Part shown: in pieces, positions 4,378 through 8,844 of the stretch
Layout: every line of letters starts with the position of its first letter
Position numbering within the stretch: position 1 is the stretch's first letter
Origin: Erysipelotrichales bacterium
GTDB lineage: Bacteria; Bacillota_I; Bacilli_A; RF39; UBA660
Direction: 5' to 3'
Length of the DNA stretch: 64,000 nt
NCBI GenBank assembly: GCA_022508565.1
Contig: JAFLUY010000006.1
Span: forward strand, 45,149 to 109,148
The notes under the pieces: model-generated
Told to the model about the DNA's origin: nothing
The model's input: the letters and a program-made list of their open reading frames with translations, nothing else
Databases searched by the model: none
Position numbers and translations under genes: made by a program

Positions 4378-4560
4378 AATTTTTTTCCTATTCTCTAACT
4401 AAATAACAATAAATAAAGGGTATTTATGCAAATAATATATACTTATAATTATGGTTTCTAAATTTGCTAAATAATAAAAAATATGTTATTTTATGACCAA
4501 GCGATAAAACATAGATTTGAATATTAAAACAACATTTTTTTATTAAAATGGGGGATTTAT

Positions 4561-6762
4561 ATGGCTGAGGTAAAAGTAAAAGTTAAACAATTTTTTAATA
4601 ACCAAATAAGCAAATATAACGTTAATTGTGAATCTTTATATAAAGTACTTGAACAATATCCAAAAGATATTGTGAATATTGTTATGGTATTTTATAAAAG
4701 AGGAGATAATAAATCATATTATTTACTCACCCGTATGTATGGACCAGCATTTGATGGAGAAGCGGCTAAAAGAGATTTATCATATTCGGAAAAAAATGAA
4801 TTAGAGTCTCTATTTAAAAGAATGGAACTGTTTTTAAATTATACTGTCAAGCAAATAGAAAAAGGAGCAAAGCCAGAAGATTTAAAAAAGATTTTTAGAA
4901 AAGCATCAGATGAAGAAATACTTGAACTATTAAAAGAGGATACAGTTGCTGATGTGAATACCGTGATATTTGATTTAGATAATTTTATGAAAACTAATAA
5001 TTTAACAGAAGATACTTTATCAAATATATTAGATTTTCATGATAATAGTGCAGAAAGAATAGCTTACAAAAGAAAACACGGAATTAATTGTAGTAAAATG
5101 AAAGCTGAAGATATTTGTCATACCTTATTTATCGATAATAATATTTTAAAAAGATATATAAAAAATGTTGAAAAGAATTTGCCTAATTTATTAAATAAGG
5201 CAAAAGAAGTTGAAGATAGTTTAAAAGTCTTAGGTTATAACGAAGAAGTTAAAAAGACAGATAAACATATAAAACCAACTGAAGATAAAAAAACAGAAAA
5301 CAATCCTACCCATGAATCACAGGCAAGCGCTGAACCAATTAAAAAAGATAAGACCGGAAAAATAATTGGTAATAATCGACCAAATAAGAGATTTGTTTAC
5401 TTTTTTGCAACTACTGATATGACAGAAGATGAAATAAAAAAACTAGAAGATAAAGTTATTGAAATAGCTTTCCTTTTAAAAGATGTTTGGAAAACAGCGT
5501 TTGATACTATGAGAAAATACTTTGGTGATGATTTACGTGGTACTTTTACAGGTTCTATGGATCCAGAAGATTTTGGACGCTATAGCGGCTTAAAAGATAA
5601 GATAAGAGAATTACAGCACTTAGAAATGGAAGACATCATAAAGAGCTTCTATGAAGCTGGAGAAGAAAAAACAAAAGAAGTTGTAATTGGAAATAAAGGA
5701 CCAGTAAAAAAATTTGTTTTCTTCTTTGCACCAATCGGTATGGATGAAGAAAATGTAAAAGAATTAGAAGATAAAGTTATTAAAATAGCTTTTCTTTTAA
5801 AAGACACTTATAAACAATCATTCGAACTTATGGTAAATTGTTTTGGAAGTGATTTAAGAGGTTGTTATTTAGGAACATTTACTAACAAAGATTATAATCG
5901 TTATAAAGGCTTAATTCATAAAATCAAAGAATTAAAAGTCCTAGACTTAGATGAAATAGAGATTAAACTTGAACAAGAAAAAGAAGCAAAAGAAAAAAGA
6001 AGAAGAGAAGCACCACAAAAACCGCTTGATCCAGATAAATTAATTGGAAACCGTGGCCCAATAAAAAAATTTGTTAATTTATTTGCTACAAATGGAATGA
6101 GCGAAAAAGAAAAAGCAGAAATATTAGATGAAGCAGTAGAAATGGCTTTTTATCTAAGAGATCATAAAGGCAAAAAAATAGGGTTTAATGCAGCTGCTCA
6201 CTTTTTTGGTGAAGATTTAAGACAAGAGTATGTTGGCAAGCTTGATACTAAAATTTATCCTGCTGCCAATAACTTTGCTTATGAAGTCAATTGTCATATT
6301 CATTGGAAAAAGAAAAGTGAACAAGAAAAAGTAGAAAGACTACATAATTATGAAGTTAAATTGGAATACCTTGATTCATTAATACATTTCGAAACGACTA
6401 TTAATAAGAAAAGTCCGTTAGATATTGCTCATGAACTTGATGTTCCAATTCATATTGTTTTAATGTCACTCATAAACAATATTACGCATTATGATATAGC
6501 CAGTATAATTAAATATATTGTAACTCGTCGTCAAGAATATATTGAAACGTTATTAAATTCTGATTATTTTAAACCATTAATGGATGAATTAACATTAATA
6601 GAAAAAAATTTAATATATTTAAAACTATTAAGTGTTTCAAATAAAGATATAACTGATGAATATATATCTAATATGTTAGGAATAACAATAGAAGACATTG
6701 AAAGTTATGAAATCTATAGTGATGATGAAGCCAAAAAATTATTAAGTTTATATTTAAAATAA
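4561..6762 (+). CDS. hypothetical protein with three tandem ~100-aa internal repeats and a sigma-70 region-4-like C-terminal HTH
   Basis: GGGGG RBS. Repeat units begin GNNRPNKRFVYFFATTDMTEDEIKKLEDKVIEIAFLLKD, GNKGPVKKFVFFFAPIGMDEENVKELEDKVIKIAFLLKD and GNRGPIKKFVNLFATNGMSEKEKAEILDEAVEMAFYLRD. The C-terminal segment LTLIEKNLIYLKLLSVSNKDITDEYISNMLGITIEDIES resembles sigma-70 region 4. Confidence 0.7.
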   Translation: MAEVKVKVKQFFNNQISKYNVNCESLYKVLEQYPKDIVNIVMVFYKRGDNKSYYLLTRMYGPAFDGEAAKRDLSYSEKNELESLFKRMELFLNYTVKQIEKGAKPEDLKKIFRKASDEEILELLKEDTVADVNTVIFDLDNFMKTNNLTEDTLSNILDFHDNSAERIAYKRKHGINCSKMKAEDICHTLFIDNNILKRYIKNVEKNLPNLLNKAKEVEDSLKVLGYNEEVKKTDKHIKPTEDKKTENNPTHESQASAEPIKKDKTGKIIGNNRPNKRFVYFFATTDMTEDEIKKLEDKVIEIAFLLKDVWKTAFDTMRKYFGDDLRGTFTGSMDPEDFGRYSGLKDKIRELQHLEMEDIIKSFYEAGEEKTKEVVIGNKGPVKKFVFFFAPIGMDEENVKELEDKVIKIAFLLKDTYKQSFELMVNCFGSDLRGCYLGTFTNKDYNRYKGLIHKIKELKVLDLDEIEIKLEQEKEAKEKRRREAPQKPLDPDKLIGNRGPIKKFVNLFATNGMSEKEKAEILDEAVEMAFYLRDHKGKKIGFNAAAHFFGEDLRQEYVGKLDTKIYPAANNFAYEVNCHIHWKKKSEQEKVERLHNYEVKLEYLDSLIHFETTINKKSPLDIAHELDVPIHIVLMSLINNITHYDIASIIKYIVTRRQEYIETLLNSDYFKPLMDELTLIEKNLIYLKLLSVSNKDITDEYISNMLGITIEDIESYEIYSDDEAKKLLSLYLK

Positions 6763-6864
6763 ATAAGTAAAATTTTATACTAATTATTAGTAATTTATAA
6801 AACTTGTCAAAATAAGCATTATTTGTTATTATATGCTAGAATTTTTAGTAATGAAGGGGTAATT

Positions 6865-7509
6865 ATGATTAAAAAAATAACAAAAATAATAACTGGTCTT
6901 ATTAAGTTATTTTTACAAATGATTATGTTGGTTTTAATTTTTTCGTTTCATAATTTTATAGTATCCAAGATTACACTAGGACTTATATTACTTGCAGTTG
7001 CTTCGACTATCGGAAGACATGTTTATTTTTTAATAAAAAACGCTATTAATCATGTTAAGTTTATAAAGAACATTAAAAGTCTTAATGAAGAAGAAGTTGA
7101 AAAAATAGAAAAAGACCTTGAAACTAAGATTAATTATACCAAAAATAGACTTGATGCTATTCAAAAGGTGGATATTTGTGAAGATGAAGTTATCTTTATT
7201 GACGGATATGTTCCAATAACTGATGAAATTTCTGAAGTAATATCATCAGAAGAATTTGAATCAAGTTACGAAGAATATTTAAAAAAACAAAAAGAAATAC
7301 TTTTAGAAAATAATGCTAATAAAAGAAGTAAATTAAAAAATGAATTAATTGTTCTTTCTTTTAATCTTCAAGAATTAGCAACAAAAAGTTTAATTTCAGA
7401 AAAAGAATCTGATGATATGGAAAGTTTATTACAAAACACGAAAGTTTTAAAAAATTATGAAAAAACAGCTGAAAAGGTTAAAAAATATTCAAGAAAACCA
7501 GTAAGATAA
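6865..7509 (+). CDS. membrane protein, hypothetical
   Basis: AGGGG RBS 6 nt before the ATG at 6865. Two N-terminal TM helices, then a charged coiled-coil-like C-terminus. Confidence 0.6.
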   Translation: MIKKITKIITGLIKLFLQMIMLVLIFSFHNFIVSKITLGLILLAVASTIGRHVYFLIKNAINHVKFIKNIKSLNEEEVEKIEKDLETKINYTKNRLDAIQKVDICEDEVIFIDGYVPITDEISEVISSEEFESSYEEYLKKQKEILLENNANKRSKLKNELIVLSFNLQELATKSLISEKESDDMESLLQNTKVLKNYEKTAEKVKKYSRKPVR

Positions 7510-8572: not shown

Positions 8573-8657
8573 TGGTGCGGGTAACAGGAGTTGAACCTGC
8601 ACGGATTACTCCACTAGATCCTAAGTCTAGCGCGTCTGCCAATTCCGCCATACCCGC
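8573..8657 (-). tRNA. tRNA-Leu (anticodon UAG), long variable arm, CCA encoded
   Basis: The reverse complement folds as a cloverleaf: acceptor GCGGGTA/TACCCGC, anticodon stem CTAGA/TCTAG with the loop CTTAGGA. Confidence 0.85.
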
Positions 8658-8664
8658 AAAAAAA

Positions 8665-8741
8665 ATGGTGGATCTTGTAGGACTCGAACCTACGACCGCC
8701 CGGTTATGAGCCGGATGCTCTAACCAACTGAGCTAAAGATC
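8665..8741 (-). tRNA. tRNA with CAU anticodon, most likely tRNA-Ile2 (lysidine); elongator Met not excluded
   Basis: The reverse complement GGATCTTTAGCTCAGTTGGTTAGAGCATCCGGCTCATAACCGG...CCA, by recall, resembles the Bacillus subtilis tRNA-Ile(LAU) more than the elongator tRNA-Met. Confidence 0.8.
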
Positions 8742-8844
8742 CGTGAGCCATTGCTCTATAAATATAACATAATTTTTTTAGTTGTGCAATAACTTTTTGT
8801 CTTGTATTCCAATTTATGTTATTATATTCAGCAGGTGATTAATC

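Follow-up and report, generated by a model that had tools for sequence, protein, structure and literature searches.

A lineage-restricted protein family of low-GC gut Bacilli combining a previously undescribed helical repeat with a sigma region 4-like C-terminal domain

The helix-turn-helix (HTH) domains of the sigma-4 and LuxR type are normally promoter-reading or activator-docking modules, and sigma-4 domains dock with the RNA polymerase beta-flap, anti-sigma factors and activators. The 733-aa protein analyzed here resembles these systems at its C-terminus but departs from them in several ways. It has no threshold match to the Pfam families of sigma-70 region 4 (PF04545, Sigma70_r4; PF08281, Sigma70_r4_2) and sigma region 2 is lacking family-wide. 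The region-4-like copy at the C-terminus is acidic and its recognition helix is cut short, and there are probably two region-4-like units per protein with unrelated modules arrayed between them. The LuxR/GerE-type HTH (PF00196) and the N-terminal tetra-helical HTH of SorC/DeoR differ in that the present protein has no receiver or sugar-binding effector domain and no significant sequence match to them, and its C domain carries the opposite charge to those DNA-binding domains. The Myb/SANT arrays (Reb1) and mTERF offer an analogy only: they too are tandem small helical repeats, and bind nucleic acids, but the present module, at ~77 aa, exceeds theirs in length, is unlike either in sequence and lacks a conserved basic recognition helix.

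The gene lies in a 64,000-nucleotide stretch of an Erysipelotrichales bacterium MAG, the whole of which is called the window. The features of the gene and its product are as follows.

4550..4555, + strand, ribosome-binding site GGGGGA, 5 nt 5' of the ATG at 4561, read from the sequence
4561..6762, + strand, gene of the 733-aa family member, ATG start, NCBI name hypothetical protein J1F35_04710
4630..4839, + strand, R0, a cryptic divergent repeat opening the conserved N-terminal region, aa 24-93, found with the family repeat HMM
4864..5229, + strand, M domain, aa 102-223, found in 35 relatives
5230..5367, + strand, low-complexity linker, aa 224-269, predicted disordered (pLDDT <50 for aa 226-265)
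5368..5619, + strand, repeat R1, aa 270-353, core 276-353, from motif, BLASTP and family repeat HMM
5689..5937, + strand, repeat R2, aa 377-459, core 383-459, from the same three sources
6046..6303, + strand, repeat R3, aa 496-581, core 502-581, from the same three sources
6409..6759, + strand, C domain, aa 617-733, acidic, the best-conserved region in the family

The product of the 4561 gene is a real, intact, cytoplasmic protein. Separate assemblies from ENA and from Logan encode an identical protein, which is in NCBI as well. It is almost entirely alpha-helical and multi-domain. The original prediction of an open reading frame at 4561-6762 with three tandem repeats was borne out, the repetition being far beyond chance. 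The motif GN..P.K[RK]FV occurs at aa 270, 377 and 496 and the three units have 26 invariant columns in common. R1 and R2 share 51% identity (BLASTP E 3e-34), R2 and R3 38% (E 1e-17), and R3 has diverged most. In the nucleotide sequence, a segment of 190 nt recurs with 72% identity at a spacing of 321 nt. The unit had been put at about 100 aa; the three copies stand, but their conserved core covers ~77 aa, and linkers between the cores stretch the distance from one start to the next to 107 and 119 aa. With a profile of 201 repeats from the family, a fourth copy, R0 (E 2e-11), emerged within what had been taken as a plain N-terminal region. Here helices are predicted at residues 35-46, 51-60 and 75-100, and aa 21-120 have pLDDT >85.

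The repeat module has the order strand-helix-helix-strand-helix. Its conserved positions (F3, Y6, F7, V24, L28, L42, Y46, G47, L50, L59, L67, I74, L78) belong to the hydrophobic core or the helix caps, apart from a single glycine; the surface varies. Conservation confined to the core is in keeping with a structural module, less so with an enzyme or a ligand pocket. Thus the suggestion that the repeats bind a ligand found no backing, as there are no conserved pocket residues. That the unit corresponds to no named domain held up. Single repeats have no Pfam match, and the members of a 57-sequence repeat alignment, scanned singly against Pfam, gave no recurrent family. The profile of these 57 sequences retrieved no natural protein from the PDB sequences, only designed helical-repeat proteins through composition. 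A degenerate copy of an HTH was considered and rejected, the hhalign comparisons of the repeat with the M domain, the C domain and sigma region 4 not being significant. Judged from its sequence, the ~77-residue helical repeat is a previously undescribed module.

The C domain ends the protein as a sigma-3/sigma-4-like or LuxR-like HTH unit. Residues 619-639 form an HTH-like pair, and residues ~671-733 (nt 6571-6759) a helical unit resembling sigma-4 and LuxR, in which lies the motif that had first suggested a likeness to sigma region 4. Several lines of evidence uphold that likeness. First, hhalign aligns the C domain with sigma region 4 (four reference sequences) at P 9e-4, in exactly the register originally proposed. 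Second, sub-threshold PDB profile matches fall at the same place, to RpoD region 4, SigB and LuxR (E 1-2) and to a response-regulator DNA-binding chain (E 0.44). Third, Sigma70_r4 is the sole Pfam family matched by more than one of the 43 members (2/43, best E 0.0015). Fourth, in the confident predicted structure the best structural neighbors are sigma region-4 domains, the model has the sigma-4 three-dimensional fold, and every one of its nearest structural relatives is a DNA-binding HTH domain. The contrary outcome, in which the repeats belong to a known domain (an anti-repressor, for instance) and the C-terminus is devoid of HTH similarity, was not observed.

Promoter recognition by the C-terminus, on the other hand, is doubtful. 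The segment aa 677-733 has a pI of 4.4, the net charge of the C domain averages -7.5 across the family, and the predicted "recognition" (third) helix spans only ~5 residues, aa 710-714. Such acidity and so short a helix argue against DNA reading. Nor is the protein a sigma factor, because no member has sigma region 2. Sigma70_r2 was found neither in the query nor in the 43 family sequences at E<=0.01, and neither Sigma70_r4 nor r4_2 gave a Pfam match in the query even at E<=10. The ~145-aa N-extension of some relatives was considered as a stand-in for sigma-2 and rejected; it has no sigma match, the query does not carry it, and no separate gene in the window encodes it.

The original prediction singled out only the C-terminus as sigma-like, and a more canonical, basic region-4-like HTH went unnoticed. 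The C-terminal half of the M domain, aa ~150-223 (nt 5008-5229), shows the four-helix pattern of sigma region 4. Residues 160-223 are basic, with a pI of 9.2, and a long helix is predicted at 193-223. The M domain aligns with the C domain at hhalign P 8e-4, and with sigma region 4 at only P 0.12, though in register. As modeled, the unit would be compatible with a basic recognition helix contacting a -35 element.

The adjacent downstream gene bears on a broader form of the sigma interpretation. Its features are as follows.

6804..6832, + strand, promoter-like site, TTGTCA, 17 nt, TG-TATTAT, a consensus match only, in the 102-nt gap before 6865
6865..7509, + strand, 214-aa ORFan with an acidic tail, ATG start, GAAGGGG ribosome-binding site on its 5' side

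In the model first proposed, the 733-aa protein is a sigma-like regulator whose C-terminal HTH reads promoters and whose repeats sense a ligand or partner, the two-TM protein of gene 6865 exerting anti-sigma-like control from the membrane. Part of the claim about 6865 survives: residues ~5-57 are hydrophobic, consistent with two predicted transmembrane helices, and the gene is on the same strand a mere 102 nt downstream. The sigma-4-like fold and the weak but in-register profile alignments also lean toward this model. Yet 6865 has a promoter-like site of its own, and no homolog of its product was found by tblastn (E<=0.1 to 1) at nine relatives' loci (L003-L011; flanks of ~1-10 kb per side), where the downstream genes vary (ABC transporter, cadherin-like protein, CmpB, FemAB). 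Hence the membrane gene is not a conserved partner of 4561, and with the adjacency not conserved a sigma/membrane anti-sigma gene pair was rejected. Together with the missing region 2, the acidic HTH with its very short third helix and the absence of pocket residues from the repeats, these results leave the sigma-like regulator very improbable.

An exhaustive HMMER search brought the family to 42 proteins, the query among them and the longest of 1517 aa, with 24 at E<=1e-10, all from uncultured Bacilli/Erysipelotrichales assemblies. Iterated domain HMMs recovered 201 repeat copies, and the C domain in 33 proteins. The shared architecture consists of the optional N-extension, R0, the M domain, 0-12 further repeats and the acidic C domain; the query has three repeats after M. 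The way of searching mattered. A word-indexed search of 5.8 billion proteins was nearly blind to the family, returning only the query with the single protein, nothing with the repeat alignment and three fragments with the C-domain profile. Likewise, a search for genome loci gave nothing with the single protein and three genome loci with a 10-sequence sub-alignment of the C domain; the latter found nothing in viral and JGI metagenome contigs. AlphaFold2 reached a pLDDT of 35 from the single sequence, and the confident model came from the 43-sequence family alignment. The whole protein and its separate pieces had no significant match in Pfam, NCBIfam, PHROGs, PADLOC or PDB sequences, and a literature search found nothing relevant. 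The family is small, uncharacterized and restricted to low-GC gut Bacilli.

The neighborhoods of the relatives are chromosomal. They adjoin housekeeping genes, lying after rpsL-rpsG-fusA-tuf or after gatCAB, and one is on a 1.44-Mb contig. Co-transcription with the str operon, suggested by the post-tuf position, was rejected for one locus (L010), because a strong terminator lies in between, as does a promoter-like site with an extended -10. The query's surroundings differ from these. In the window the gene is flanked by ORFans of 877, 214 and 251 aa without family assignment, and two tRNA genes are present at 8576-8742. Such an ORFan island beside tRNA genes, placed unlike the relatives, could be a mobile element or prophage remnant, and the protein its cargo (e.g. 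an anti-repressor or polyvalent protein). However, the best PHROGs hit has E 0.095, PADLOC gave no match, no relatives are present on the 2.9 million viral contigs of IMG/VR, and a BFVD fold search returned nothing at E<=1e-3. Furthermore, the annotated genes around 4561 in the window showed neither an integrase nor phage genes, and the relatives occupy conserved housekeeping neighborhoods. A mobile origin is therefore scarcely probable at all. A defense-island reading of the ORFan cluster was also rejected for lack of PADLOC support. We conclude that the family is lineage-restricted and chromosomally encoded in uncultured low-GC Bacilli/Erysipelotrichales.

What the protein does can be approached through its charge pattern. 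The repeats are net neutral and the linkers between them basic (family average +2.5). Most members >500 aa have a pI of 8-9.5; the query as a whole has a pI of 6.0. One possibility is a pure protein-protein scaffold or spacer, in which the HTH-shaped domains dock proteins, the repeats are a length-variable linker and no nucleic acid is bound, for instance a cytoplasmic organizer of a sporulation, division or secretion complex. The unconserved, neutral repeat surfaces would suit it, as would the strongly acidic C domain, the low pI of the query and a repeat number that ranges widely among orthologs, as is typical of spacers; the relatives' genomes also carry sporulation genes (SpoIIIAH, GerE, Germane). 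Against a scaffold stand the basic character of most members, of their inter-repeat linkers and of the M-domain HTH, and the fact that the closest structural relatives are DNA-binding HTH domains without exception. In addition, no conserved partner gene was found among the relatives' neighbors. On balance the scaffold is rather unlikely.

We tentatively favor a DNA- and/or RNA polymerase-associated architectural or regulatory protein, a role inferred from the sigma-4-like sequence hints, the charge pattern, the repeat conservation and the chromosomal context. In this proposal the M domain would touch DNA through its basic HTH, and the acidic sigma-4-like domain at the C-terminus would be a protein-docking module, not a promoter reader. 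Between them, the repeat array and its basic linkers may form an extensible beads-on-a-string spacer or a multivalent contact surface of low specificity, and the length of the array would be free to vary between lineages. A bolder version, which we consider distinctly unlikely, is that these proteins represent an unrecognized class of bacterial transcription/nucleoid architectural factor. It would derive from the C-terminal half of sigma, with sigma-3/sigma-4-like modules used twice, dock RNA polymerase via an acidic sigma-4 mimic, and bridge or space DNA with 0-12 new ~77-aa folds, in gut Bacilli whose genomes are small and poor in conventional regulators.

Four domains (N-extension, repeat, M and C) are now defined, ready for use as profiles, in a family that is publicly labeled "hypothetical protein" and has no Pfam domain, and the family is cleared of two annotations that would tempt but mislead, "sigma factor" and "sigma/anti-sigma pair". 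If the proposed role is correct, a single protein outside the sigma factors would have taken up an HTH of the sigma-4/LuxR type twice over and joined it to copies of a new small domain in an array that can expand, and the family could serve as a lineage marker and a candidate chromatin/transcription organizer in uncultured, reduced-genome gut Bacilli.

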